A stretch of DNA of 59,392 nt from an uncultured bacterium (GTDB lineage Bacteria; Krumholzibacteriota; Krumholzibacteriia; Krumholzibacteriales; WJIX01), in contig CAZKNG010000005.1 in NCBI GenBank assembly GCA_964554125.1, forward strand, positions 1 through 59,392. The letters run 5' to 3'. Every line of letters starts with the position of its first letter. Within the stretch, counting starts at the first letter, position 1. The notes beneath the pieces are model-generated. The model was given only the letters and a program-made list of their open reading frames with translations. It did not search any database and was not told the origin of the DNA. Below are positions 10,772-54,732 of the stretch, piece after piece. The translations under genes and the position numbers were made by a program.

Positions 10772-11587
10772 TTATACAGCGTAATAGAAAGCTATAATTC
10801 CAAAAAATAGTCCAATCTTCAGAAGTAAACTGATAAGTCCAGGGCGTTTCGCCCTATATGCCAGCAGAAAAGATAGTATAAGTATAGGTATTATCGAAAA
10901 GCTAATTATAAAAAGATAAACTTTGGTGTAAATCCCTGTAAAAAAAGGGATAGGAAAAGAAATTATTAGAAGCAGAAAAATAACAGCCGCAATTCTCATA
11001 GCTTTTTTCTTCCCGATAATAATCGCGATTGTCTTTGATCCAAAGAAATAATCGCCTTCTATATCCTCACAATCTTTAACGATCTCTCTTCCAAAAATAA
11101 ACAGGAAGGCAAATAACGAAGGAATTACACCCGCTTCAATGTTGCCACCGCAGTAGGAACCCAGCAGAAATCCCGATCCTGTGACAGATGACACAACAAA
11201 ATTTCCGATCATATATCGACGTTTAAAAATACCCGAATACAGATGGAGCAGAACAACCCAGATAATTATCCAGATTACTACTTCCTGTTTAAAATCGGTT
11301 AAAATAAAACTGAGAAATGCCAGAAGAATAACATACAGGTAAAGAGCCTGCCTTCTAGACAATATACCAGAAGGAAGAGGCCTGTTAGGACGATTGACCC
11401 TGTCGATATCAATATCGTAATAATCATTTATTACGTTGCCCGCGGCTGTTGTTAATCCCACGGCAGTGAGAAGCATCAGCGGGAACAGTTCACCCCCGCC
11501 AATTGAGAAGCCCGCGGCAACAGCCATGACCGCCGCGGCGATGTTATGTAATCTGAATATAGAAAAGAGACTCAGAATTTTTCTCAT
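10772..11587 (-). CDS. UbiA-superfamily prenyltransferase, geranylgeranylglycerol-phosphate geranylgeranyltransferase (DGGGP synthase)-like
   Basis: AAGNVINDYYDIDIDRVNRPNRPLPSG and REIVKDCEDIEGD Asp-rich motifs; multiple TM helices. Confidence 0.8.
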   Translation of the reverse strand: MRKILSLFSIFRLHNIAAAVMAVAAGFSIGGGELFPLMLLTAVGLTTAAGNVINDYYDIDIDRVNRPNRPLPSGILSRRQALYLYVILLAFLSFILTDFKQEVVIWIIIWVVLLHLYSGIFKRRYMIGNFVVSSVTGSGFLLGSYCGGNIEAGVIPSLFAFLFIFGREIVKDCEDIEGDYFFGSKTIAIIIGKKKAMRIAAVIFLLLIISFPIPFFTGIYTKVYLFIISFSIIPILILSFLLAYRAKRPGLISLLLKIGLFFGIIAFYYAV

Positions 11588-13143
11588 TAGATATCCAACA
11601 ATAATTTAAGATAAGCAAACCCTTCAGAATCGGAAAGGTCAGCATCGAGCCACCTCATTCCCGTCCCCGCGTAAAGAATAGATCCACCTGTAAAATCAAA
11701 TGAAGCTGAAACTGATAATTCTTTCTCCTCAGTTACAAGTCCGCTCGGAAAGGGCAGATCAGGTTCATGTTCCTGCGGGCTCCAGGAACGCAAATCATTA
11801 CCCTCTCCGTACCTGCTGTCACTCCCGTTTAAATCCATAACTCTATTCGGACTGAGAGCGGCCGAAAAACGAAATCTCCACCTGTCGGCATCGGGCCCCA
11901 GATAAGAACCGATAATCCTGTCCTTATCCGTATCACCGCCACCCGTTATGTACCCGGTAAGAGAACCTGTGTGGGAATATGTATAAATATCTATATATGT
12001 GTAATCAAATAACGCCTCGATATCGTGTCCACCAGCCGTAAGAAGTGCTTCAGCGGTCAAATTCAACGCGATCTTGTCTGGAGCCGTTTCCCTGTTCTCA
12101 TACTGAAAATCATCAACAAGAAATTCGCCGTAAAAGAGCAGGCCTCTGCAAGCCGGAATCTTCCAGTCAATACCCCACAAAATATTATTATACTCATTTT
12201 CATTCTCATTATATTGATTGGCGTAGTATGACCCGGCCGGCAGCAGATAGGCAAAATCCAGCCCCCTGCCGGAATATACAACCGTCTCGCTTATTCCAAT
12301 GTATATATCTCCCGGAAGCTTGACAGACAGCCTGTGCCCCGCGAGTTTCCTCGGACTAACCGCGTCCGAATCAAGGATAGAATGAAGCAAACTCAGTTTA
12401 AAGATCCCCAGCTCCATGTATGCGCTCAGATGGTCCAGAGGTCCGGCGCCGGATGAAAGAATCAGACCGTCATCCCTGCTGTTGCCCCAGTGAATGTAAT
12501 CACGCCCCATAATAATACCCCACCAATTACGATGCACTGAAATATAACCTCTTTCAAACTCAGAGGTTAATCCCCTGAAACTCTTCTCCCTGGCACTCAC
12601 TTTCCTATGTGTGACATTATTATTCCATTCGGGGCGCAATCTTAATTTATAAACCGTTTCATATGTAAACCCGCCTCCGGAATCAATCAGAATATCCGGT
12701 GAAAGAAGTCCGTCGAGTTCACCCTTCTTATATTCTATTCTTTTTCTAAAAGAGAGGCCGGCGCCCATATCAAAACTCAAAAATCTTCTTCCCTTCTGGT
12801 ATAACCACACGGGGCTGTCTTCCCGGTCGCGGGGCCTGTGAGACCTCCCCTGAAACTCCTGCCTCAACCGCCTCAGTAAAAAGTTCTGTCTCGGGCTCAG
12901 TCTGGTGTCGGCATCTTTTAAATTCTGCAATATTCTATCCAGATAGAATTCGATCATTTTCCGTGAATAAGGTATTTCCGGTGAGAGATGAATTAACCCT
13001 TTAAGTTCAAATGTCCGAAGAGCGGAATAAACCCAGCTTTCGGGGCTGATATTTTCGTCGGAACCGCTCAGCTTCAAGGGAGAGATGACAAAAAAACACC
13101 CGAGGAGCAAAAACAGCAAACCAGATTTAAAGCGAAATTTCAC
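11587..13143 (-). CDS. Capsule assembly Wzi-family outer-membrane protein
   Basis: Signal peptide; N-terminal W-x-Y..L..F...GLI...P.SR; GRDYIHWG, LILS, GHRL, ISETVVY and YGEFLVDD motifs; TAATG overlap with the UbiA gene. Confidence 0.75.
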   Translation of the reverse strand: MKFRFKSGLLFLLLGCFFVISPLKLSGSDENISPESWVYSALRTFELKGLIHLSPEIPYSRKMIEFYLDRILQNLKDADTRLSPRQNFLLRRLRQEFQGRSHRPRDREDSPVWLYQKGRRFLSFDMGAGLSFRKRIEYKKGELDGLLSPDILIDSGGGFTYETVYKLRLRPEWNNNVTHRKVSAREKSFRGLTSEFERGYISVHRNWWGIIMGRDYIHWGNSRDDGLILSSGAGPLDHLSAYMELGIFKLSLLHSILDSDAVSPRKLAGHRLSVKLPGDIYIGISETVVYSGRGLDFAYLLPAGSYYANQYNENENEYNNILWGIDWKIPACRGLLFYGEFLVDDFQYENRETAPDKIALNLTAEALLTAGGHDIEALFDYTYIDIYTYSHTGSLTGYITGGGDTDKDRIIGSYLGPDADRWRFRFSAALSPNRVMDLNGSDSRYGEGNDLRSWSPQEHEPDLPFPSGLVTEEKELSVSASFDFTGGSILYAGTGMRWLDADLSDSEGFAYLKLLLDI

Positions 13144-14303
13144 TCGAGAATTCCTCTTTTTATCGATTTCTGCCTCACTTCCCTTCCACTGGCCGCTTTT
13201 TTATAACACTCACGGGCTTTCCCCGTATATCCCTGTTTTTCATATGTTACAGCAAGACTGAAATAGGCTTTCCTGTCATGGGGGTTTATATTGACAACTT
13301 CTTTATAATATCCAAGTGCTTCTTCGGAACGCTCCAGGTTGTTAAAACATTCCCCCACGTAAAACAGTATTTTAGCGTTTCCGGGATTCAACTCAGAAGC
13401 ACGCCGGAGATAATTCAACGCCTTCCCATAGAGGCCCTTGCGATAGTATAAATATCCTATATAGAAAAAAGCATTAACATTATCCGGTTCGAGCTTTAAG
13501 ATTTTTTTAAATTCCTCCATCGCCTCTTCATAATGACCTTCATTAACAAGTGCCATTCCAAGGTTGTAACGTCCTTCAACACAGGTTGGTGAAAGTTCAA
13601 GACCTACACGGAATTCATTAATAGCCTGCTGCTTGTTTCCGTCATCCCCGAAGAGAGCACCGAGATTAAAATGAGCCTCCGCGCTCTTTGGATTGTGCTG
13701 GACTGCCTTCAGGAATTGCTGCATGGCAACATCCTGCCTGCCGTGCATATCGAGTATATAGCCAAGATTTGTATATGATTTAGAATGAGTAGGATCAAGT
13801 GTAATTGCCTGTCTATAGCACTTTTCAGCTTCTTCGTACTGATGGTTTTTTGTATATGCCACTCCTAACCTGAAATAACACTCCGGATTGCCGGGTTCAG
13901 CGGATATAGCTTCACGATGCAATCTTATAGCGTCTGATAACTTGCCCTCAATCTCATGAATTTTACCCATACAATAAATCGGGTAGGCGTTCGTTTTATC
14001 TCTGTTTCTTAATTCCAAGTAACCCTTATAAGCCAACTCGTAATTACCGATTTCCTGAAGAAGATCAGATACCTTTGACAGATCTGATTCGCTTATATCC
14101 GGGTGTGATATAAGGTTCACGAATAATTCTTCAGCTTCACCCCTTTTTTTTCTTTCGAGTAGTTCTTCGGCAAAGGAAAGTATTTCTTCAGGTGTTGTTT
14201 TTCCCTCAACCGGTTTCTTTTCAGTCGCGGAATATTTATTTCTCTTGCTTTGCTTCTCAGTTCCCCGGGCAAGCTCAAGCAATTTCTCCCAACGCAGCTT
14301 CAT
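13140..14303 (-). CDS. Tetratricopeptide-repeat protein (about 8-9 TPRs); start reassigned to ATG 14303
   Basis: Repeated A/C-Y-x-x-LG...A...P motifs (ECYFRLGVAY, SYTNLGYIL, AHFNLGALF, GRYNLGMAL); GGGGG SD before ATG 14303. Confidence 0.88.
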   Translation of the reverse strand: MKLRWEKLLELARGTEKQSKRNKYSATEKKPVEGKTTPEEILSFAEELLERKKRGEAEELFVNLISHPDISESDLSKVSDLLQEIGNYELAYKGYLELRNRDKTNAYPIYCMGKIHEIEGKLSDAIRLHREAISAEPGNPECYFRLGVAYTKNHQYEEAEKCYRQAITLDPTHSKSYTNLGYILDMHGRQDVAMQQFLKAVQHNPKSAEAHFNLGALFGDDGNKQQAINEFRVGLELSPTCVEGRYNLGMALVNEGHYEEAMEEFKKILKLEPDNVNAFFYIGYLYYRKGLYGKALNYLRRASELNPGNAKILFYVGECFNNLERSEEALGYYKEVVNINPHDRKAYFSLAVTYEKQGYTGKARECYKKAASGREVRQKSIKRGILE

Positions 14304-14537
14304 GGCACCCCCCAATCGGGAAATCATATTGACACGCGGCACATATCTATCCGAAAACTAAAGCAGATACACAACAACTGTCAAGTCTATTTATCCTTGT
14401 TTTTCCGGAAAAAACAGACAAGAATTTGCCGGAACAAAGATCTTCTTTTTCAATAAAATATACGCTTATAAAATAAGGGGAGATCAGATTATTCCTGCTT
14501 AAAATTATCTAAATTATCATTAGTTAAAATCTGGGGC

Positions 14538-14566: not shown

Positions 14567-15616
14567 TCAATCTTTTACACAACGTACCGAAAAACCGGAA
14601 TTCTTAACTCTACCGGTACGCGTAATATATCCATCAGATGAACTCAGCATTCTACTATATGCGGCATTTTCACTTATCGATCTAGTAACCCAGAAAAGAG
14701 CCGAGTTGTAGATACTCGAATAATCACCTTCAGGTCCCCGGTAACCTCCCGGTAAAGCTGTAAAACCGCTTTCGTTAGTAGCTGCAGTGTTGGGAGTTGC
14801 CCAATTTTCAGTTCCGGCTTCCTTCAGTTTGCCCCCTTCATCCGTTCCGCGATATCCTGTATCTCCAGCCTCTGAAGGGTCCATGCCGATAAAGATTTCC
14901 AGTTCCTGCCATTCCTCGTCGCTAGCCACATGCCAGCCCTCGGGGGCTAATCCGCGGCTGTCATTTACAGCAAACCAGTTGTACAGTTTCCCGTAAGTAC
15001 CTACGTAACTTTCATTATTGCCGTAATTACAGCACGCGCCACCTGCCAGACCATCCCATTCCGCTGCGTCTTCTACTTCAGCTATCGAATCCCCGTTCAG
15101 GTAATGGGTTACTTTAAGATTCTCTGTCATCCACCACTGATCTCCAATTCTTCTTGTTTCATAAATGTTGCCGTCAATATCGGTCACCGTACCGAATACT
15201 GTAGTAGAAAACTCCTTTGTGTCTCCGTAACCCGTTCCAGCGCTGTTTACTGCATACGCCCTTATATAATATTGGGTTTCAGCTGTCAGCCCTGTTATTT
15301 CACTGGTAAAACTGCCTGTCCCCGTCCCGTCGTTTGTCGTACTATCCTCCAGGGAGGGGAGCTCGTCAACACTCCAGCATACTCCCCGCACCGTAACACT
15401 TGCTCCTCCGCTGGAGGTAATAATTCCTCCGCATTTCGCGGTAGTACCTGTTATATCAGTAACTTCAGCAGTGGTCAATTCAGGAACTGAATTAGACGGT
15501 TCAGTACTGTCCTCAGAACAACTGAATAAAATAGATGCCGCGGCAGAAAGAAGTACAGTTTTGACAAAGATCCTGCCGGTTAACTGATCTCTTATAAAAT
15601 GTTTATACATTATCAT
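14567..15616 (-). CDS. Lipoprotein with an Ig/FN3-like domain and a Fibrobacter succinogenes major paralogous (FISUMP) domain
   Basis: Lipobox ILFS-C; ARGVCWS-like Ig module; TVTDIDGNIY, IGDQWWMTENL, YGKLYNWFAV, GWHVASDEEW, FTALPGGYR, GFSVRCVKD. Confidence 0.9.
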   Translation of the reverse strand: MIMYKHFIRDQLTGRIFVKTVLLSAAASILFSCSEDSTEPSNSVPELTTAEVTDITGTTAKCGGIITSSGGASVTVRGVCWSVDELPSLEDSTTNDGTGTGSFTSEITGLTAETQYYIRAYAVNSAGTGYGDTKEFSTTVFGTVTDIDGNIYETRRIGDQWWMTENLKVTHYLNGDSIAEVEDAAEWDGLAGGACCNYGNNESYVGTYGKLYNWFAVNDSRGLAPEGWHVASDEEWQELEIFIGMDPSEAGDTGYRGTDEGGKLKEAGTENWATPNTAATNESGFTALPGGYRGPEGDYSSIYNSALFWVTRSISENAAYSRMLSSSDGYITRTGRVKNSGFSVRCVKD

Positions 15617-15915: not shown

Positions 15916-16353
15916 CTATCTCCACCTGCTGTATCTATATCCGTAAAGCGATCTATACTGACGAAACTGCAGCCGCAGCTTAAAATTACTGCCCGGAGGA
16001 TCGTATGTAAGGTCAATATTCGGGATAAAAACTTCAGGGGAAGTCCTCTGCGAATGTTGGGCAAAAACAGAACGTACACCGACATCAAGATTCAAATCCC
16101 ATGATTGACCAAACCCGTAGTTGAAATGACCCATATAGTAACCCATACTTTGAGATTGATTCCCGTTTGAAGCGAATGAAACACCCATCGAACTCTTGAA
16201 ATCAAGACCCGGTATACAGACAGACCCCTCTGTTACGGCATTATTAAGATAATCGGAAAAAACACTTGGCTGTGTATCTCTATTCTGTGCATTAGTCTGC
16301 GCTGAGAATAAACTAATCAGAAATGGAAGAATTAACAGTGACCGAATCTTCAC
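15916..16353 (-). CDS. Hypothetical exported protein (beta-rich)
   Basis: 145-aa ORF with a signal peptide (MKIRSLLILPFLISLFSAQTNA), 7 nt downstream of the response regulator stop. Confidence 0.7.
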   Translation of the reverse strand: MKIRSLLILPFLISLFSAQTNAQNRDTQPSVFSDYLNNAVTEGSVCIPGLDFKSSMGVSFASNGNQSQSMGYYMGHFNYGFGQSWDLNLDVGVRSVFAQHSQRTSPEVFIPNIDLTYDPPGSNFKLRLQFRQYRSLYGYRYSRWR

Positions 16354-16360
16354 AGCAGAC

Positions 16361-16720
16361 TCATTTCTGTTTCCGGAGTAATTCTTTTACCTTCTCTTTC
16401 AGGGGCTCGAAATCAACAGATTTAACTATATATGCGTCGGCAGCCCAGGTTTTGAAATTCTCTTTATATACAGAATACGCGGAATTTATTATTACCGGAA
16501 TATCTTTGCGCCTTTCTACGATTTGTACAAGCGCGTCGATTCCACTCTCATTCTCAAGCTTTATATCGAGAATAATAAGATCGGGTGGATCTTTTTCCAC
16601 TGAATCAATAGCACCCTTTACATCGCCAACGCAATCTACCTCATACCCTTCATTCTCAAATTCCTCTTTGTAGAGTTTCCTTACATTAATTTCATCATCT
16701 ACAACAAGTATTCTAGACAT
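16361..16720 (-). CDS. Single-domain CheY-like response regulator
   Basis: ILVVDDE, PDLIILD (phospho-acceptor Asp present), PVIINSAY, AYIVKS; GGGTGAGG SD. Confidence 0.95.
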   Translation of the reverse strand: MSRILVVDDEINVRKLYKEEFENEGYEVDCVGDVKGAIDSVEKDPPDLIILDIKLENESGIDALVQIVERRKDIPVIINSAYSVYKENFKTWAADAYIVKSVDFEPLKEKVKELLRKQK

Positions 16721-16824: not shown

Positions 16825-17943
16825 CTACTCAATTGATAAGTCAACAATTATCTGCATCTTTGAAAGGTTTTCTATATCAACTTTTGATAGTTTAACCGGT
16901 ATTCTTACTGTATTTTCAGTTTCATGTAACTCAGGGGTTTCTTCGCCGTCCTTCTCCTCACCTGTTGACTCCTGTCCCAGCTGAGCAAGTCTTTCGAGTG
17001 GATCATTTATAAACTCCGTGGCTACAGAATTCCCCGCTTCCTCACTTCTCTCCTCAGGTTTATTATTGCTGTCATCAGGGAAATCTACAACACGACCATA
17101 ATTTCCATATTCACCTGCTGAAGGTTCAAACTCAACGCTTTCTTCATTCTCGCTGAGGACATTATCCACAAACTCAGAGACAGACTCATGCTCCTCTTTT
17201 TTCTCCTCTGCGCTATTATTTAAAGACTCGCTTTCGTCCGCCTCTGAGCTGATATCATCCAACTTCGTATTGGGCACAACCTCGGCTTCAACATCTGTCT
17301 TTTCTTCTTTATTTTCAGTATCATGAGTTTCACTAGAGCTGCTGGATCTATTACCCGGTATATCTTTCTCTATACTTCTCATGACCAGCCCTACTATCGA
17401 TTCGAATGTCTCATATACCCCTGTTCCTTTCGTGGCAATTGCTCCGAAAGAGTTTTTATGAGATTTGTTTAATTTTTCATCCATTATCTCTTTGTTTAAA
17501 GCTCCGCCGATATCCTGTTTGTTATATTGAAGAACCCAGGGTATCTCATCAAGATTTTTGCCCGTTTGACGAAGATTTTCTTCCAGATTGGCCAAACTTT
17601 CCATATTGTCGTCCATCTTGCCCGGAGAGGAATCCGCGACGAATACTATCGCGTCTACACCTTTTAGAACAAGTTTGCGGGTTGCATTGTAGAATACCTG
17701 GCCCGGCACTGTGTATATAAGGCACTTGACCGATATATTGTTAAGATGTTCAATTTTCATCGGCAGGAAGTCGAAAAACAGGGTACGGTCGGTTCTGGTC
17801 TTCATGGAAACCATTTTACCCTTGTTTTCTCCGGGCAATTTCGAGTATATGTGTTCCAGGTTTGTTGTTTTTCCGCTTAATCCGGGACCATAATAAACGA
17901 TCTTAACGGTTACTTCTTCATCTTTCCTGTTATAAACAGCCAT
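16825..17943 (-). CDS. MglA-family small Ras-like GTPase with a long acidic C-terminal extension
   Basis: KIVYYGPGLSGKTTNL, TDRTLFFDF, YTVPGQVFY, LVLKGVDAIVFVADS and QYNKQD match the myxobacterial MglA signature; followed by about 175 aa of E/D/S-rich tail. Confidence 0.93.
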   Translation of the reverse strand: MAVYNRKDEEVTVKIVYYGPGLSGKTTNLEHIYSKLPGENKGKMVSMKTRTDRTLFFDFLPMKIEHLNNISVKCLIYTVPGQVFYNATRKLVLKGVDAIVFVADSSPGKMDDNMESLANLEENLRQTGKNLDEIPWVLQYNKQDIGGALNKEIMDEKLNKSHKNSFGAIATKGTGVYETFESIVGLVMRSIEKDIPGNRSSSSSETHDTENKEEKTDVEAEVVPNTKLDDISSEADESESLNNSAEEKKEEHESVSEFVDNVLSENEESVEFEPSAGEYGNYGRVVDFPDDSNNKPEERSEEAGNSVATEFINDPLERLAQLGQESTGEEKDGEETPELHETENTVRIPVKLSKVDIENLSKMQIIVDLSIE

Positions 17944-18088
17944 AATAATAGATCCTTTAGGTGCTTAGCAGATACTGATCTCCGCTTTTATAAATTCTCC
18001 AGACTGCCGAATTATAACCGCGGCATTTATACTTTTCCTGTCAAAGCTGTCTGATTCACAATAAAAATTACACTCACGGTTTTAATAA

Positions 18089-18105
18089 GGCAAATAACAT
18101 GCCAG
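18089..18105 (-). promoter_or_regulatory. Sigma54 (-24/-12) promoter upstream of the MglA-like gene
   Basis: CTGGCATGTTATTTGCC versus consensus YTGGCACGNNNNTTGCW; AT-rich region upstream contains an IHF-like site TAACAATAAGTTG (18140-18152). Confidence 0.65.
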
Positions 18106-18272
18106 TAGAGTGTTTTAATTATTTATATAAGTTATTATATAACAATAAGTTGCGATGCTTGTTTTCGGTTTCGTCCAGGGTGATTCAGCAAATGGAAGGG
18201 AGATCTCTTAAAATGCAAACAATAATGATAATAAGGCCTGAGCCACGAACTATATTTTATAAGTACAAATAA

Positions 18273-18310
18273 ATATATGCAACGCTAACCTCCGTCAGCG
18301 TTGCATATAT
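18273..18310 (-). terminator. Intrinsic terminator after the PPC-domain lipoprotein gene
   Basis: Perfect 14-bp inverted repeat ATATATGCAACGCT/AGCGTTGCATATAT; on the minus strand it extends by GAC-GGAG-GTT and is followed by TTATTT. Confidence 0.75.
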
Positions 18311-18335
18311 AGATAGTTCAGATCACTGAAGCTTT

Positions 18336-19118
18336 TTATGGAGAATACGTTCTCCACAACAGGTCATACTCATTACCAGAGTCATCTCCATATACCCTGA
18401 TATAGTAAGTTCCGCTCGATGTAACAGGACAACTTATGAACTCATCGTCTGAGGTCACTGTTGAGGAATCAGAATAACAGATGACATTATCCGGAGAATC
18501 ATAAAGTTCTATATCTATATCTCCTTTATAATGGGTAAATTCACAAGTAACTTCAACCAGAGTATCCCCTGAAGCTACATATATCTCGTACCAGTCATCA
18601 TCGAACTGTAATCCATAACCATCTATCAATTCCAGCCTTCTACCTTCATCCTCAGTAAAATCATATGCCGCACTGTAGCTGTCATTCTCTTCATATTCGT
18701 CGTCAATCCAGGGTACAGAATCAAGCATAGCGCTGTCACAATCGAGTTGTACCGTAGGAGCACGATCAGCTTCTGCCTCGATCTCCTTTTCCCATTGTAT
18801 AAGGACTTTGCAAATAGGATTTTCTTCATCATCAAAAACTATAACACCGCCGTTGCTTTTAGCTGAAAGATGGTGCGTTCCCGGAGACAGGTTCAATAAA
18901 GCGGGTTCATCTGAGGAGATCATTCCAAGGGGAACTGGGTCATGATCAATGTGAATATATAATCCGATTGGATAACAATTTACTCCTTTAAGAACAACAT
19001 AGCCGCCGGCATTTTCATCTCCCAGCTCGGTTGCATAAGGATTTATTTTCATCACTGAGTCTTCCTCGCATCCCAAAAGAAAAACTAACCCTACAAATAA
19101 TAATACAATTCGCCTCAT
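18336..19118 (-). CDS. Lipoprotein with a C-terminal bacterial pre-peptidase (PPC) domain; start reassigned to ATG 19118
   Basis: MRRIVLLFVGLVFLLG-C lipobox with GGAGG SD; DEYEENDS, DDDWYEI, GDIDIELYD and GTYYIRVYG PPC motifs. Confidence 0.8.
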   Translation of the reverse strand: MRRIVLLFVGLVFLLGCEEDSVMKINPYATELGDENAGGYVVLKGVNCYPIGLYIHIDHDPVPLGMISSDEPALLNLSPGTHHLSAKSNGGVIVFDDEENPICKVLIQWEKEIEAEADRAPTVQLDCDSAMLDSVPWIDDEYEENDSYSAAYDFTEDEGRRLELIDGYGLQFDDDWYEIYVASGDTLVEVTCEFTHYKGDIDIELYDSPDNVICYSDSSTVTSDDEFISCPVTSSGTYYIRVYGDDSGNEYDLLWRTYSP

Positions 19119-19241
19119 TACAACCTCCATATGAACCAAGTATCTGAATCTCCAGTATATGGTCAATATTATATCACATCTATAAATTAATGAATCGGGA
19201 TGGAACATACAAACAAAAAATTTACATTATAGAGGGGGTTT

Positions 19242-19652
19242 CTACAATTTCTTGCCGCACCATGGACAATATCTGTAACTTTTGCTGAACCTCTTTCCGC
19301 ATTCACACTCAAAAAGGGAATCTTCCGAAGACGAAAAGGTTTTAACCGGATTATTCCTGAGTAGATAGAGGTGATCATATAATGTCGATGCTTTTGGGAG
19401 TACAAATTGATAATCCTTGTCAGCTACAGTTACGATTACAGCCGGGTGCAGATTTCCTCCGGCTATTCTTACAGAAGATATCGTACAAACATCCAAAGAA
19501 ACATTCTTCATTCCGAAGGAGGAATCCAGCGCTGAAACTTGAAAATTAAGGTTTCTGTCAGTTAACTCCAGAATTCCCCTTGCGGCAACCAGACTGGTAA
19601 CGTAATAAATCGCTTTTTGCATAAAAATTGTTTTTTCATCACAAAGCTGCAT
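19242..19652 (-). CDS. Hypothetical protein, PH/GRAM-like domain plus C-terminal zinc ribbon
   Basis: RGILELTDRNLNF, a beta-rich PH-like pattern, and C-terminal CECG...YCPWCGKKL; AGAGGGG SD. Confidence 0.65.
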   Translation of the reverse strand: MQLCDEKTIFMQKAIYYVTSLVAARGILELTDRNLNFQVSALDSSFGMKNVSLDVCTISSVRIAGGNLHPAVIVTVADKDYQFVLPKASTLYDHLYLLRNNPVKTFSSSEDSLFECECGKRFSKSYRYCPWCGKKL

Positions 19653-19687
19653 TGATCCCCTCTTCCGCTTAATACTGAATTAGATAA

Positions 19688-19703
19688 AGCCAGAAGTATG
19701 CCA
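19688..19703 (-). promoter_or_regulatory. Candidate sigma54 promoter for the PH/zinc-ribbon gene
   Basis: TGGCATACTTCTGGCT: TGGCA at -24 and GC at -12 with GG-N10-GC spacing, about 35 nt upstream of the ATG. Confidence 0.45.
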
Positions 19704-19808
19704 TTTATAGCATTATACTCAAAATATTTTCTAAAAGTGGATTTTATGTCAATTGATCAGTGGTGATATTATTCGAACGGCATTATATCCCGGTTCGAGA
19801 TTGTTATC

Positions 19809-19824
19809 TGGTCTCTTTTTTGCT
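19809..19824 (+). promoter_or_regulatory. Candidate sigma54 promoter for the 146-aa orphan gene
   Basis: TGGTCTCTTTTTTGCT: GG-N10-GC with a TTGCT -12 element, 57 nt upstream of the ATG. Confidence 0.4.
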
Positions 19825-19881
19825 TGTTTTTCAATATGAATATCCGGATTTAATCTTTATTTAAACACAGGGAGGTTTCGA

Positions 19882-20322
19882 ATGGAAATTACGGAAAAGA
19901 TATTAAGAGAGGTTTTCCACCGCCTCCTTAATATTGAACCGAATGAAAAGAAATTAAAGAAACTCAGAGTTATCATAGATGGAATGATTGACAAATTTCA
20001 GGAAACTTTTGATTTGGATTCAGTCCAGAAACAGAATACATTCAGAGCAATTATATGCAGCATGTTCGTTCATGGATGGGGAATGGGAATGCACCCTTAT
20101 AACAGTCCGGACAAAAACCTTGACGACAACAGTATCGAAGTCAGAGTGAGCAAGGATATACTAACGCCTCTCGAAAATATCAAAGCATTAAGATACGTTA
20201 AGAAAGACCGTGAGGGCAGAGTCAGAAAAGCTCTTTTTGAACCTGATCAGAATAAAAGAATACGCACACAGATTGATAGTCTGCTTGAGAAAATAACAAA
20301 GGAGAAATGGGGAGAAAAATAA
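19882..20322 (+). CDS. Hypothetical protein (no recognised family)
   Basis: 146-aa ORF filling an otherwise empty interval, with strong SD GGGAGGT 5 nt before the ATG. Confidence 0.75.
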   Translation: MEITEKILREVFHRLLNIEPNEKKLKKLRVIIDGMIDKFQETFDLDSVQKQNTFRAIICSMFVHGWGMGMHPYNSPDKNLDDNSIEVRVSKDILTPLENIKALRYVKKDREGRVRKALFEPDQNKRIRTQIDSLLEKITKEKWGEK

Positions 20323-20470
20323 ACTTAAATCGATTCATGCATGGCATAGCTATGAATCGCCTGAAAATATATAACGATCTCTGCTCCCGGTGTTTCCGAT
20401 TTCTTGCTTACTCATAACTTTAAAAATCCCTCAGAATTACAGCCCGATGATCGCGTTTGAATCTATATTA

Positions 20471-21295
20471 TCATTTGGAGTTTTTGTTGCTCATCTCCAT
20501 CTCAATCACCCGTCCGCCATTCTTGAAATCCACACGATCCATGATCTCCCTTATAATATATAAACCCCTTCCGGAATCATTGTAGATCTTCCCTTCACCT
20601 GTTGGATCCTCGATTTTGTCCTGGTCAAATCCTACACCCTGATCTTCTATCTGAATGATCACGCGGCTGATGCTGATATAAATCCGTATATGCACCTTAA
20701 GTTCCTTCTTGTTACTATTACCGTGAACAATGGCGTTGCTTAAGGCTTCATCCATCACCATTGGAAGGTTTACCCTGCAATCTTCCGGGGCGTATCCAGC
20801 TTCGGCGGTCAAAAAAGAGACAAGGCGGTTTACACCGACAATCCTCGACAGTTTGCTCGGTATGAGAAAATCCAGACGAATCTGGCCTTCCCTTATCAAC
20901 TCTCTGCTGCGGGGAAAATACAGGTGGTCGCGGCCGGATAGATCGACAAGATATTGATAATCACTCTCGCTGAAAGGAGGAGTAATAATATTCTTAATGC
21001 CAGCGGACATATATGTAAGATAAGTCCTTTCATCACACTCATCAGTGACAATATGCACGGGTGTGTCGATCAGTAAAAGGCAGATCTGACGAAGCTTTGC
21101 GGGATTGAACCTTTTCTGTGGTAAAAACAGAATAACCCTGGGCGATTCTCTCTTTACCTTTTGCAAGGCTTTTAGAAATCGAGGGAAAGTAGTATAGGAA
21201 TTCTTTTCAACATTATCCGGTAATTCCATTTTTTTGAAAAATTCCAAATGGAGTTCCGGATTCAGATTTAGAGTAATAATCAGAACTTTATCCAC
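20471..21295 (-). CDS. RsbW/SpoIIAB-type anti-sigma factor kinase (HATPase_c) with an N-terminal degenerate receiver-like domain; start reassigned to GTG 21295
   Basis: EALSNAIVHG (N box), DQGVGF (G1), GRGLYII (G2); GTG lies 4 nt after the upstream stop. Confidence 0.85.
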   Translation of the reverse strand: MDKVLIITLNLNPELHLEFFKKMELPDNVEKNSYTTFPRFLKALQKVKRESPRVILFLPQKRFNPAKLRQICLLLIDTPVHIVTDECDERTYLTYMSAGIKNIITPPFSESDYQYLVDLSGRDHLYFPRSRELIREGQIRLDFLIPSKLSRIVGVNRLVSFLTAEAGYAPEDCRVNLPMVMDEALSNAIVHGNSNKKELKVHIRIYISISRVIIQIEDQGVGFDQDKIEDPTGEGKIYNDSGRGLYIIREIMDRVDFKNGGRVIEMEMSNKNSK

Positions 21296-21299
21296 ATCG

Positions 21300-21875
21300 T
21301 TAGAAAATCTTCTGCCCGTCGGCGAGAATTTCGTTGAGGGCATCTTTAAAATAATCACTTGACTGTGCTATTCCGGGTCCAATTTTCTCCTTGTAACCCT
21401 CCCAGCCTTTTTTAATCTCAGGCCCAAGAGCTGACATAAGGTTTCCTTCAGAAAGTGCTTTGTCTCTCTTTTCCTGATTATAGACAAGTATATCACTTAC
21501 AAAAACTCTGGCAAGTCTTTTCGCCCTTTCTTTCTTATTCCTTTCTTCATTTGTATCTTGTTGACAGGTATGCTCTTCAGAAGGCGCGCTCTCTTCGAGA
21601 TCAACCTCTTCGAAACCAGACCCACGCTCTATTTCTCCACCCGCTGAAACCTCTTTATCCTCTATTTCATCATTCCAGACCTCGGCGTTAACCGTTTGAG
21701 AGGACTCTGTGTTAAAACCGCCCGTACTCCTGTCAAAATCCGGTTTGTTTGAATAGGCAGCTTTCAGCTTCCACACAAATTTACATTTTGGACAGCGCAC
21801 CCGAATTCCCTTTACAGGTACATTTTCGTCAGGAAGGCTGTATTTTGTCTCACATCCATTGCATGCAACAATCAT
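21300..21875 (-). CDS. MJ0042-type zinc-ribbon protein with an acidic linker and a C-terminal RomX-like helical domain
   Basis: N-terminal MIVACNGCETKY...RVRCPKCKFVW; C-terminal AKRLARVFVSDILVYNQEK...NL...L..EI..G...YK...YF..ALNEIL. Confidence 0.8.
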   Translation of the reverse strand: MIVACNGCETKYSLPDENVPVKGIRVRCPKCKFVWKLKAAYSNKPDFDRSTGGFNTESSQTVNAEVWNDEIEDKEVSAGGEIERGSGFEEVDLEESAPSEEHTCQQDTNEERNKKERAKRLARVFVSDILVYNQEKRDKALSEGNLMSALGPEIKKGWEGYKEKIGPGIAQSSDYFKDALNEILADGQKIF

Positions 21876-51031: not shown

Positions 51032-52447
51032 TCAAGTATGTAAACCGGGCACTAGATTTCTTAGGCTCTCCAACATCTGATTTTTCTTTCCCTCTATGGC
51101 TGATTGAACCATTTTTTCTATCTTTTTATCCAATTCAGCGGGGATTTGTGACGAGGATCGAGCGAGGAATATCTTCTCCTGTTCAGATGAAACCAGATTT
51201 TCCTCCACATTTACAAGCTCTTCGAGGAGCTTCTCTCCGGGACGCAGTCCCGTAAATTCGATTGGTATTTCCTCATCCGGGATATGCCCTGTAAGTACAA
51301 TAATATCTTTTGCCATTTCAAGAATATTTATTGCCTCTCCCATATCAAGAATAAATATCTCTCCTCCAAGCCCCATTACAGAAGCCTCCAGCACTAGAAG
51401 TGCCGCTTCCTTTACTGTCATAAAGTAGCGGGCGGCCTGAGGATGGCTTACCGTAACAGGACCTCCCCTTTCAATCTGTTTTAGAAACAGGGGAACAACA
51501 CTACCCGAGCTTCCTATCACATTACCGAAACGCACAGATATAAAACGGCAATTATCGATGCACCCGTGAGCTGAGAAATACAATTCCATAACACGTTTAG
51601 AGGCCCCCATAACACCCCGGGGATTCGCTGCTTTATCTGTAGAGATAAACACAAAACGCTCAGTCTTAGCGTGCGCGGAAGCCCTTGCAAGATTCAGAGT
51701 TGTACCTACATTATTTATAATTGCTTCCTCGGGATCTTCCTCCATATAATGCACATGTTTATGGGCGGCTGTATGATATATGATATCGGGGGAAATGGTA
51801 CTAATCAGTCTTTCAGTCCTCTCCGGATTCCTCAGATTGTTGATGACTGTCGATATCTTGATATCTTTGAATTTCGTTTTCAATTCTTCTTCAATCTCAA
51901 ATATCCTGTTCTCACCCCTCCCCAGAAGTACAAGTTCAGCGGGCTTTACATGAGAAATATAACGGCAGAGTTCACTCCCTATCGTTCCACCGGCTCCAGT
52001 TACCAGAACTCTCCTTCCGGATAGAGCGGGTTTGATATAATCGAGTTCAAAATCAACCGTCTCTCTTCCCAGAAGATCTTCAACACGAACCTCACGAATC
52101 TGATTAATGCTGACATCACCCTTGATTATCTCCATAACACCGGGAACTATCTTATAGGGAGTCTTCGCTCGACCGCATAGATGTATCATATTCCTTACAA
52201 ATGAGCGGGGAGCTGTCGGGATCGCGATTATAATCTCATCGATCCTTTTATCCAGCACAAACTCTTCCAGACGTGAGGTCTTTCCGAGAACCGGAATACC
52301 GTCAATTTTCATGCCGTCAAGGTCGGGGTTATCATCCAGCAGACCAATAACAACCAGTCCAAGTTCTTTATTTTCCTTTATCCTGGAAACTACCATTCTG
52401 GCAGCTTCACCCGCCCCCACGATGAGAATTCTTTTTCTCTTAATCAC
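51032..52447 (-). CDS. Nucleoside-diphosphate-sugar 4,6-dehydratase (CapD/PglF-like), soluble form
   Basis: IVGAGEA, EDLLGRE, TGAGGTIGSEL, HTAAHKHV, ISTDKA.NP.GVMGASKR, VRFGNVIGSSGSVVP, GLRPGEKL. Confidence 0.93.
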   Translation of the reverse strand: MIKRKRILIVGAGEAARMVVSRIKENKELGLVVIGLLDDNPDLDGMKIDGIPVLGKTSRLEEFVLDKRIDEIIIAIPTAPRSFVRNMIHLCGRAKTPYKIVPGVMEIIKGDVSINQIREVRVEDLLGRETVDFELDYIKPALSGRRVLVTGAGGTIGSELCRYISHVKPAELVLLGRGENRIFEIEEELKTKFKDIKISTVINNLRNPERTERLISTISPDIIYHTAAHKHVHYMEEDPEEAIINNVGTTLNLARASAHAKTERFVFISTDKAANPRGVMGASKRVMELYFSAHGCIDNCRFISVRFGNVIGSSGSVVPLFLKQIERGGPVTVSHPQAARYFMTVKEAALLVLEASVMGLGGEIFILDMGEAINILEMAKDIIVLTGHIPDEEIPIEFTGLRPGEKLLEELVNVEENLVSSEQEKIFLARSSSQIPAELDKKIEKMVQSAIEGKKNQMLESLRNLVPGLHT

Positions 52448-54732
52448 CTTACAACCGCAACCTTTCTTATCTCTGAACTGTTACTTCCGATAACCCTAAC
52501 AATATATATGCCGGAGACGGCTTTAAATCCATTAATTGTGAGAATATCCCATATCGCTTCCCCGTCAGAAATATTCTTCTTTTCGTGCACGAGCTCCCCT
52601 TCGATATTGTAAATTTTCACATCCACACTACCAGATATACCGGAAATCCTTAGTTCATCATCACCGTTGTAACAATTTACCGGATTCGGATAGAGAAATA
52701 ATTCCGAAAGGGGTCTTTGTTCCAGCGAAAGAATTCCCATATCAATACAGGCGAGGCCTTTTCCCGTTCCAACCCACATTTTGTTGTTCACTCTATCGAA
52801 AGCGAGAGATTTGCAATAAGCATCGGGCAGCGGTGAAATCACTGAATTGGGATATTTGATCTGAAGATTAGATCTCCAGTAATCATAGGTCGTATATATC
52901 CCCTTAACTTCACCATCCCTGTCGATAATATTCAATCCGGCGCTTGTTGCAACCCATATATTCCCGAAATCATCTTTCTCTAAATCATTTACCTCATTGT
53001 TTAATATCTTCCTCTTCTCATCGGTTAAACCGCTTGTGTAGATGAACAAGTTCCCACTACCATCCTGCTTCAGTAATTCTCCCCCGGTCGCTACCCATAA
53101 ATTATCTCCAATAACCTCCAGAGCGTTCAGTTCAGTGCTTGCAAGATCCGTTTGATCAACAGCGGTATACCAATAATCATCACTTTGGTCCTTAAGCGAC
53201 GACCATTCAAATCCACCTGTGTTCCACACCTGGACACCGTCATCATTGATAGCCAGATAAGCACTGGAACCGTCAAAAACACAGTCCCTTACATTGGGTC
53301 CATCGATATCACTGTTAGCAGGTGTTATACTTATCCACTCGGTTAAAGACGCGTTTACAATATCTATCCCCCATCCTTTCGAAGGATAATCGTCATCAGA
53401 AAGAAACCAGATATTACCAGCGGGATCTTCCGCGATATTTATATGCCTTGAAGATATTCCGTCGTCATCTCTGGTAAATCTATTCCAAATGTCATCTTCA
53501 GCAATAAGCCGTTCTCCAAGTTCAACCATATCAAGTGGTCTTTCAAGCGCGCTACTCCACAGCCTCCCGTTTGAGTCACAGATAAGTGCAATATTATAAT
53601 CGAGATAGGAGAGGGAATCTGTATATGAAATCCATTCGTTATTACCTGAATTATAACAAACTCCAAAGAAAGTCGTACTCACCCATACCCCTCCCTCGGG
53701 ATCCATATCGACCCTTCTGATTATATTAGAATTAAGTCCCCCCGGATCCCCCGTTATCCACGCACCTCCGTCATAAGAGCAGATATGCACTCCCCTCCCG
53801 GGTCTTACAGCGCTTTCACCACCAATCCAGGGCATACCCTCATCGTCAATACCAAGGGCCCTCAGATCGAATCTCCCCCATAATTTATATTCGGAATAGA
53901 ATAAATCCTCCATTCCCCCGGGATCAACGCTCCGCCATACAGATGATGAAATGTCCCAGTTATAAAGTCTGTCAACTGTTATACAAAAAAGCTCCCCGCC
54001 TCCTGAGGCTACAGCAACAAAGGGATATTTGTCGGGACCGGCGGGAAATCCCAACACGGACCATATTCCGTCATCTAAAAACTGTATGCTGCTGTCTGTG
54101 GCGCAATAGATATTACCGTTAAAAAAAGATAGAGAAAGAGCATTGCCGATAGGGAAGAAATCATAATCAAAAGTTTTTCTATTGAATCTCGACACACCGT
54201 CCGAACCAGCTACCCATAGAATAGTATCGTTAACAGAAAAAATATCATTTATATTTGTACCGTCCAGACTGTCAGTAAGTACTATTTCCCCTGAAGGAAT
54301 CTTTTCCGCAAATTTACCTATACCTCTTACTGTCCCATAGTATATTTCATTATCGACGTTGGTTATACAGGTTACACTGTCACTTATTAAACCGTAATCT
54401 TCTGTAAACCAATTCACCTCCTGATCTGTAATCCTTATACGGGCTACTCCGTATCCTCTGAATCCCGCCCAGATATCATTATTCGCGTCAACAGTAACCG
54501 CTTCTACATTACTCGATCGTAATTCAAGGCCGCTTAAATAAGAGGTATAGACCGAATCACTCTTGTCAAAGAGCATAATTCCGCCGCCCGTAGCACACCA
54601 CAGACTATCCCCCACCACCTCTATCTCGTTCACCTTGCTTTGAGATATATAAACATCCCAGTTTATATCAGCTTGGGCTGCTGAACCGGGAAATATAACT
54701 GCCGCGGCAAATAACAGAATAAAATATTTCAT
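52444..54732 (-). CDS. Secreted beta-propeller protein (two-component-regulator propeller repeats) with a C-terminal T9SS-type/FlgD-like Ig domain; PorZ-like
   Basis: Signal peptide; repeated D..G..W..T..G motifs; C-terminal LFLYPNP...VKIYNIEGELV...WD...SGIYIVRV...KVAVVR. Confidence 0.75.
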   Translation of the reverse strand: MKYFILLFAAAVIFPGSAAQADINWDVYISQSKVNEIEVVGDSLWCATGGGIMLFDKSDSVYTSYLSGLELRSSNVEAVTVDANNDIWAGFRGYGVARIRITDQEVNWFTEDYGLISDSVTCITNVDNEIYYGTVRGIGKFAEKIPSGEIVLTDSLDGTNINDIFSVNDTILWVAGSDGVSRFNRKTFDYDFFPIGNALSLSFFNGNIYCATDSSIQFLDDGIWSVLGFPAGPDKYPFVAVASGGGELFCITVDRLYNWDISSSVWRSVDPGGMEDLFYSEYKLWGRFDLRALGIDDEGMPWIGGESAVRPGRGVHICSYDGGAWITGDPGGLNSNIIRRVDMDPEGGVWVSTTFFGVCYNSGNNEWISYTDSLSYLDYNIALICDSNGRLWSSALERPLDMVELGERLIAEDDIWNRFTRDDDGISSRHINIAEDPAGNIWFLSDDDYPSKGWGIDIVNASLTEWISITPANSDIDGPNVRDCVFDGSSAYLAINDDGVQVWNTGGFEWSSLKDQSDDYWYTAVDQTDLASTELNALEVIGDNLWVATGGELLKQDGSGNLFIYTSGLTDEKRKILNNEVNDLEKDDFGNIWVATSAGLNIIDRDGEVKGIYTTYDYWRSNLQIKYPNSVISPLPDAYCKSLAFDRVNNKMWVGTGKGLACIDMGILSLEQRPLSELFLYPNPVNCYNGDDELRISGISGSVDVKIYNIEGELVHEKKNISDGEAIWDILTINGFKAVSGIYIVRVIGSNSSEIRKVAVVR

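Follow-up and report, generated by a model that had tools for sequence, protein, structure and literature searches.

Among bacterial models of Ras-like polarity control the MglA switch is the best studied, and what is known of its regulators comes almost entirely from Myxococcus. The locus described here raises the question of what a protein that joins a zinc ribbon to a domain resembling the Myxococcus xanthus regulator RomX does near an mglA-like gene in a bacterium of another lineage. It lies on contig CAZKNG010000005.1 of an uncultured member of the Krumholzibacteriota (positions 1 to 59,392, hereafter the window), a 59-kb stretch of core chromosome with close to all genes on the minus strand, among them groES, uvrB, valS, recG, the complete dcw cluster from mraZ to ftsZ and polysaccharide genes. 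An original prediction, made from the letters of the sequence, had seen here a polarity module in which one protein would both serve MglA as guanine nucleotide exchange factor (GEF) and act as a docking site for its GTPase-activating protein (GAP). We propose instead, with a probability of about 55%, that this 191-amino acid (aa) protein, here called ZnR-RomX, is a RomR-independent adaptor for the GTP-bound form of the neighbouring tailed MglA, one polypeptide taking the place of the RomR/RomX pair.

A RomX homologue fused to a zinc ribbon

ZnR-RomX is encoded by the open reading frame (ORF) 21300-21875 of the ORF table (minus strand, stop codon included). The 372-aa ORF of the GTPase, at 16825-17943, shares its strand and lies 3357 bp away, which agrees with the distance of about 3.4 kb given originally. 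The start of ZnR-RomX, MIVAC.GC, agrees with the family consensus. The C-terminal part, residues 109-191 (21303-21551, minus strand; ending in ...ALNEILADGQKIF), is a RomX-like three-helix bundle whose first helix carries R120, R123 and D128. Residues 114-185 align without gaps with M. xanthus RomX (PDB 8zna, residues 5-76; phmmer E=1.1e-9, 35% identity), and a profile of 28 diverse family members matches RomX with E=5.9e-17 and nothing else significantly. An AlphaFold2 model built on 42 homologues consists of a small beta ribbon (predicted local distance difference test, pLDDT, about 70), a disordered stretch at residues 43-107 and a helical bundle at residues 107-184 (pLDDT 79-89). In a Foldseek search of the PDB, RomX 8zna ranked first (E=9.9e-4, template modelling score 0.73 on the target, root mean square deviation 1.6 Å over 74 columns), the zinc finger of ZitP (2nb9) came second and the GltJ ribbon (7zok) fourth. 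Sequence, profile and predicted fold thus all identify the C-terminal domain as a genuine homologue of M. xanthus RomX. The RomX motif given originally, with a profile search left to settle the matter, was correct, and the match is far beyond chance. Since no Pfam or NCBIfam model covers the RomX-like domain or RomX itself, the more than 600 full-length homologues of about 190 aa, mostly from Candidatus Krumholzibacteriota, are named only "zinc-ribbon domain-containing protein" in the databases.

The N-terminal residues 1-36 (21768-21875, minus strand) form a zinc ribbon of the MJ0042 type, as had been read from the sequence at the outset. This segment matches Pfam PF13717 Zn_ribbon_4 (E=6e-13, 48.9 bits against a cut-off of 30.3) and TIGR02098 MJ0042_CXXC (E=6e-9, 35.4 bits against a cut-off of 20.9), and residues 4-37 match the solved zinc ribbon (ZnR) of GltJ, 7zok (E=7e-4). 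Its layout, CxxC-(about 19)-CxxC, places it in the type to which the ribbons of GltJ and ZitP belong, and all four cysteines (C5, C8, C28 and C31) are invariant in the 42 homologues. The protein as a whole is not a GltJ: the GltJ equivalog NF033761 scores 29.4 bits (cut-off 450) with only residues 3-95 aligned, and the full-length GltJ architecture of ribbon, linker, GYF domain, membrane and periplasmic parts is absent. Between ribbon and bundle, residues 37-108 (21552-21767, minus strand) make up an acidic linker that is predicted to be disordered, with pLDDT below 50 at residues 43-107 and a net charge of -14. Its length and sequence vary among homologues, except for a nearly invariant tryptophan (W67), E90 and E107.

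RomX binds MglA only in the GTP state, and R11, R14 and D19 of its helix 1 are required for MglA-GTP binding and for exchange stimulation, while the receiver domain of RomR is contacted by W87 and by helix 3, with its L75/R76 pair (bioRxiv 10.1101/2024.02.20.581209). R11, R14 and D19 align with R120, R123 and D128 of ZnR-RomX, and all three are invariant in the 42 homologues. On the other face, the Leu-Arg pair aligns with A185-D186, a reversal of charge, and the protein ends six residues further on, so that it has no equivalent of the Trp87 segment and the known contacts with the RomR receiver are missing. Therefore, the MglA side of RomX has been conserved in this family and the RomR side has not. 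W158, at the position of a RomX arginine, is conserved in the family. Nor does ZnR-RomX have the free-standing form of about 89 aa known from RomX, as its 191 residues include the ribbon and linker in front of the bundle.

Whether RomX itself should be called an exchange factor or an effector is disputed. Szadkowski and colleagues reportedly saw stimulation of exchange in 2019. The original prediction treated the GEF role of RomR/RomX as established; stimulation of exchange by RomX has indeed been reported in a 2024 preprint (bioRxiv 10.1101/2024.02.20.581209), but the role is contested by a study that describes RomRX as an effector of MglA-GTP and not a GEF, with only stabilisation of the GTP state and effector-like binding (PMC13408092).

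The neighbouring GTPase is an MglA with a conserved tail

The GTPase domain of the 372-aa protein comprises residues 1-195 (17359-17943, minus strand). Residues 3-193 match the MglA structures 5ymx, 6h17 and 3t12 with E values from 6e-60 to 3e-56. The motifs are a P-loop GPGLSGKTT, a switch-1 TDRTLFFDF with the equivalent of Arg53, a G3 TVPGQ, which is specific to MglA, and a G4 NKQD; thus the features of MglA group 1, threonine for aspartate in G3 together with the intrinsic arginine and glutamine, are all present, and the protein encoded at 16825-17943 has the sequence of a canonical MglA. The AlphaFold model of the preprint sets three acidic residues of MglA against RomX helix 1; of these, D111 and E115 are kept here and E108 is replaced by glycine. 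As the equivalents of Arg53 and Gln82 are kept, this MglA probably needs a GAP of some kind. Its homologues are annotated publicly as "ADP-ribosylation factor-like" or "SRP receptor beta".

Residues 196-372 (16825-17358, minus strand, stop codon included) form the C-terminal tail to which the original prediction had drawn attention. These 177 residues are acidic and predicted to be disordered, with a net charge of -35 over residues 196-344, and they end in the motif TVRIPVKLSKVDIENLSKMQIIVDLSIE (16828-16911). The tail is conserved, with at least 120 homologue clusters of 361-450 aa covering the full length. Short stretches of it are conserved, namely ...EEHESVSEFVDNVL, EFINDPLERL and, at the end, VxVPVxLS...IIVDLSIE, which resembles a beta hairpin, so that the tail is more than low-complexity acid.

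In the scheme of Wuichet and Sogaard-Andersen (2014, PMC4316618), an MglA counts as an orphan if the four genes around it include no mglB. Our Pfam scan took in nearly all of the window's minus-strand ORFs of at least 90 aa, and found none with a Roadblock/LC7 domain within four genes of this mglA, which is therefore classed by gene order as an orphan MglA. Moreover, neither MglB/Roadblock nor RomR was found among the scanned ORFs of the whole window.

Distribution of the fusion and its linkage to MglA

Searched exhaustively with HMMER, the C-terminal 83 residues gave 1602 representatives of clusters at 50% identity with E<=1e-3, 646 of them with E<=1e-10, and in nearly all of them the RomX-like domain sits at the extreme C-terminus. 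Among the best 149 representatives, 97 start with a CxxC...CxxC ribbon, and many of the others are fragments. Variants of the architecture were also seen. Five proteins of 760-990 aa (P0121-P0123, P0129 and P0138) begin with a zinc ribbon, after which come four or five RomX-like domains in tandem, and the domain is C-terminal as well in P0262, which has a TIR-like N-terminus, and in P0233, a receiver-domain protein from a Nitrospiria metagenome-assembled genome (MAG).

To survey the gene neighbourhood, one genome per GTDB species was scanned with the terminal motif of the family, which gave at least 544 confirmed loci, and the best 80 of these, with flanks of up to 10 kb on each side, were searched with the proteins of the window. 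The 80 loci come from Krumholzibacteriia, Latescibacterota, Eisenbacteria, MAGs labelled Fibrobacteraceae, Gemmatimonadota, Binatia and one "Deltaproteobacteria" MAG. An MglA-family GTPase is encoded 1.1-6.7 kb downstream of ZnR-RomX on the same strand in 64 of them, and most of the loci with no GTPase nearby are cut off by contig ends. The association with MglA suspected originally is thus not accidental. Upstream of ZnR-RomX, recG is found in 45/80 loci, and rpmB is a conserved neighbour in 29/80. Because the intervening genes differ between lineages (the PPC-domain gene of the window occurs in 1/80), the linkage of ZnR-RomX to MglA has outlasted rearrangement. A phmmer search of the window and of the ORFs of the 80 loci with a provisional M. 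xanthus MglB query gave no match, an exploratory and weak negative.

The neighbouring GTPases fall into two classes. The true MglA class (33 proteins) shares 51-67% identity with the window GTPase and has TVPGQ; the divergent class (30 proteins, such as that at 10867-11826 of locus L047 and those of L027, L029, L043 and L053) shares 27-34%, has GKR in the P-loop where MglA has GKT, and lacks TVPGQ, so its members may be pseudo-GTPases. The tails of both classes end in the same strand-like terminal motif. The position equivalent to RomX R11 is arginine in all 32 loci of the first class and methionine in 26 of the 28 of the second, and in parallel the equivalent of MglA E115 is kept in true MglAs and lost in the divergent GTPases. 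The R14 and D19 equivalents are constant across both. This covariation is the pattern that a direct contact through helix 1 would predict, and we regard it as supporting such a contact, not as proof of it.

Other genes of the cluster

Convergent with the ZnR-RomX unit is a conserved ORF for a protein of 146 aa, p146 (19882-20322, plus strand), with the motif HGWGMGMHP. In 69/80 loci the interval from ZnR-RomX to the GTPase contains, on the opposite strand, a homologue with 52-79% identity, which makes p146 the best-conserved gene of the cluster over these loci and several candidate phyla. All of its 290 homologues are annotated as "hypothetical", and the motif, as HGWGxGMHP, is invariant. Searches of Pfam, NCBIfam, PADLOC and PDB gave no match for p146, its AlphaFold2 model is poor (pLDDT 60.6), and Foldseek gave no match below E=2; a reading of p146 as an MglB/Roadblock protein was not borne out by these searches.

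Directly downstream of ZnR-RomX, and overlapping its 3' end by 44-59 nt, begins the gene for a 295-aa RsbW/SpoIIAB-type kinase (20471-21358, minus strand), which occupies this place in 34/80 loci. Its residues 171-287 are a HATPase_c_2 domain (PF13581, E=6e-17), matched weakly by models of anti-sigma F and RsbW. The N-terminal domain aligns end to end with receivers over 105 columns, lacks the phospho-acceptor aspartate and matches them weakly (hhalign P=1e-3, probability 20%), so that its assignment as a receiver is a weak lead only. No STAS-domain partner for such a kinase was seen in the window.

The CheY-like and tetratricopeptide repeat (TPR) proteins of the original prediction proved real in Pfam. 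The gene directly downstream of mglA (16361-16720, minus strand) encodes a CheY-like single-domain receiver of 119 aa (PF00072, E=6e-22), which among PDB entries comes closest to the Thermotoga single-domain regulator 3a0r (E=3e-28). Such a gene follows MglA at about 1.1 kb in some 12 loci, where identity is 61-69%, and in a further two, where it is 45-48%. The receiver was considered as a RomR or FrzS and rejected, its closest relatives being generic single-domain regulators; moreover, it lacks the Pro-rich linker and Glu-rich C-terminal domain of RomR. Farther downstream of the GTPase lies the gene for a 400-aa protein with at least 7 TPR repeats (13140-14342, minus strand). Of the 64 loci with a GTPase, most have a similar gene 0.9-2.5 kb downstream of it and on its strand (53-58% identity in close relatives), and we consider the protein a candidate MglA effector.

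A scan of the region for promoters and terminators gave counts at the level of a shuffled control, with a single strong hairpin standing out. This hairpin, a 17-bp perfect stem followed by a T-run at 18273-18310 (minus strand; a consensus match only), lies between the PPC-domain gene and mglA and hints that mglA is transcribed with the receiver gene as a separate unit. The PPC-domain gene (18336-19208) was rejected as a member of the module, given its presence in a single locus. None of the five core proteins matches a defence system in PADLOC, and a reading as a defence system was set aside.

Some further genes stand among these. A 136-aa protein with a zinc-ribbon-like C-terminal end, CxC...CxxC, behind an N-terminal domain of no assigned family (19242-19652, minus strand), is kept at this place, between p146 and MglA, in some 10 closely related loci. 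After the receiver gene comes one for a 145-aa protein with a signal-peptide-like N-terminus (15916-16353, minus strand), which has no family match and is found in the same place in 8 close relatives at 39-44% identity. A lipoprotein with a Fib_succ_major domain (14567-15616, minus strand) lies between the MglA-receiver unit and the TPR gene as an insertion relative to close relatives, and a protein encoded at 52444-54732 (minus strand) has the C-terminal sorting domain of the type IX secretion system. These last two proteins are consistent with a host from the Fibrobacteres-Chlorobi-Bacteroidetes (FCB) group, and the close homologues of the window proteins, named Candidatus Krumholzibacteriota or Krumholzibacteriaceae, bear out the non-myxobacterial, FCB-related host that had been supposed.

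A proposed adaptor and its alternatives

According to the adaptor model, helix 1 of ZnR-RomX (R120, R123 and D128) would bind MglA-GTP near the nucleotide pocket, and the bundle would stabilise or recruit MglA-GTP as RomX does, whether this is termed effector or weak GEF activity. The zinc ribbon, held on an acidic disordered tether of about 70 residues, would provide a second protein contact and, as an anchoring or regulatory arm, stand in for RomR. The ligand of the ribbon might be a motif of the MglA tail, p146, the adjacent receiver-like kinase or, as in GltJ, an intramolecular site. ZnR-RomX, p146, the tailed MglA, the CheY-like receiver and the TPR protein would together make up a conserved MglA module of Krumholzibacteriota and related candidate phyla. 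We favour this model because of the RomX homology by sequence, profile and fold with the three helix-1 residues invariant, because a canonical MglA that keeps D111 and E115 is encoded nearby, because an MglA-family GTPase is linked in 64/80 loci from several lineages with variable intervening genes, and because the R11 and E115 equivalents change in parallel with the type of GTPase. That ribbons can serve polarity proteins as interaction modules is indicated by the precedents of GltJ (PMC11135422) and ZitP.

Several points weigh against the adaptor model. Three Gemmatimonadota loci with ample flanks (L075, L076 and L080) have the fusion and no MglA within reach, so that the link is strong and not universal. 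The conserved order beside recG could keep the genes close without functional coupling. The covariation is statistically weak, since it probably goes back to one or a few ancient clade splits, and the RomX-MglA interface in Myxococcus is itself known from an AlphaFold model and mutants, with no solved complex.

The coupling of activation and inactivation proposed originally, with the RomX-like domain as GEF and the ribbon recruiting an MglB-type GAP, has its precedent in GltJ, whose ribbon, of the same type as that found here, binds the C-terminal helix of MglB and raises GAP efficiency about fourfold (PMC11135422); and the window MglA, with its Arg53 and Gln82 equivalents, probably does require a GAP. 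However, the lack of MglB and RomR among the scanned ORFs of the window, together with the varied ligands that ribbons of this type bind (that of ZitP being unrelated), leaves the coupling unsupported. The weak negative for MglB in the 80 loci points the same way, as do the binding of RomX to MglA-GTP only and the absence of GEF activity in the 2026 study (PMC13408092), and we consider this alternative unlikely. It is also improbable that the bundle docks mainly on a receiver, either the N-terminus of the kinase or the CheY-like protein, in a phosphorylation or partner-switching pathway with MglA as a neighbour or downstream target. The overlapping kinase gene with its receiver-like start in 34/80 loci and the CheY-like gene after mglA would fit such a pathway, but the RomR-receiver contacts have been lost from the bundle, the kinase N-terminus is only weakly assigned as a receiver, and the kinase gene is missing from over half of the loci, while the GTPase and p146 are nearly constant.

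If, on the other hand, ZnR-RomX were a generic zinc-ribbon/helical-bundle protein with an unrelated role, it and mglA would be neighbours by inherited order only, with no functional tie. That the whole region is syntenic is shown by recG and rpmB, and some Gemmatimonadota loci have no MglA nearby. But the homology is specific to the only characterised protein of this fold, an MglA-GTP binder, and the residues that contact MglA are invariant; the link has been kept across several phylum-level lineages despite changing intervening genes; and helix 1 covaries with the type of GTPase. We therefore think this very unlikely. The adaptor model may also be carried further, in a tentative form that we would not rely on at present: ZnR-RomX, p146, the tailed MglA and the TPR protein might constitute a self-contained polarity or motility switch working without MglB and RomR, common to Krumholzibacteriota, Latescibacterota, Eisenbacteria and Fibrobacterota-like lineages, in which p146 would be a new MglA regulator, for example the missing GAP, and the ribbon would bind the terminal motif of the tail, or else that motif would be autoinhibitory, giving an intramolecular switch like that of GltJ distributed over two proteins.

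Comparison with known systems

We found no published description of the size of this family, of its occurrence in FCB-related candidate phyla, of its conserved genetic association with an MglA that bears a tail, with p146 and with a TPR protein, of the loss of the RomR-binding features or of the covariation of helix 1 with the GTPase type, and nothing useful on motility in the literature on Krumholzibacteriota. An undescribed switch had been suggested; the fusion itself is not wholly undescribed, since "Zn finger/thioredoxin" and "zinc-ribbon" proteins are listed among the Foldseek hits of RomX, though without further analysis (bioRxiv 10.1101/2024.02.20.581209), and the window protein very probably belongs to these categories. 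The response regulators that combine a receiver, a zinc finger and a RomX-like domain (for example AlphaFold A0A2N6E6P0) unite the same domains. However, the fusions of the preprint are described as deltaproteobacterial response regulators, with no mention of gene neighbourhood, FCB lineages, a tailed MglA or p146.

In terms of annotation, the GTPase can now be named MglA and the fusion is seen to carry a RomX domain. A RomX bundle with intact MglA-GTP-binding residues is widespread outside the Myxococcota, mostly fused to a ribbon of the GltJ/ZitP type and linked genetically to MglA without RomR or an adjacent MglB, and p146 and the conserved MglA tail are two new candidate components. The family thus offers a simpler natural system in which to address the GEF-versus-effector dispute over RomX.

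The closest relative is RomX itself (MXAN_3350; PDB 8ZNA), with which ZnR-RomX shares the three-helix bundle, 35% identity over about 72 residues, the identical Arg, Arg and Asp of helix 1 and a genome region that also encodes a canonical MglA. RomX is a free-standing protein of 89 aa whose helix 3 and C-terminal tryptophan make its contact with the receiver of RomR, whereas the domain described here is the C-terminus of a 191-aa protein with these contacts changed or absent and no RomR nearby. GltJ (AgmX; ribbon 7ZOK, linker and GYF domain) resembles ZnR-RomX in having an N-terminal MJ0042-type ribbon, a flexible segment and an MglA-GTP-binding element, the last being predicted in our protein. 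In GltJ the ribbon is held by the linker, is freed when MglA-GTP binds and then recruits MglB, its ligands being its own linker or the C-terminal helix of MglB (PMC11135422). GltJ differs in being a 671-aa membrane protein of the gliding machine with a GYF domain, in the ligand of its ribbon, which is MglB, and in binding MglA-GTP by a short linker motif and not by a RomX bundle. ZitP of Caulobacter crescentus (2NB9), the second-best structural match, likewise has an N-terminal ribbon, which docks on a polar organiser; however, that ribbon binds PopZ, and the protein regulates pili and has neither a RomX-like domain nor a link to MglA. Taken with these cases, ZnR-RomX suggests a recurrent design in which a ribbon is paired with a sensor of MglA-GTP.

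The GTPase, in turn, resembles the orphan MglAs, such as SofG of M. xanthus and MglA of Bdellovibrio (PMC4316618), which belong to the same GTPase family and likewise lack an mglB in the four-gene range. The window GTPase differs from them by its conserved acidic tail of 177 aa with the strand-like motif at the end, and by its conserved partners, ZnR-RomX, p146 and the TPR protein. Together, these comparisons suggest that a polarity switch of the Myxococcus type exists in a differently wired and so far unstudied form across several candidate phyla.

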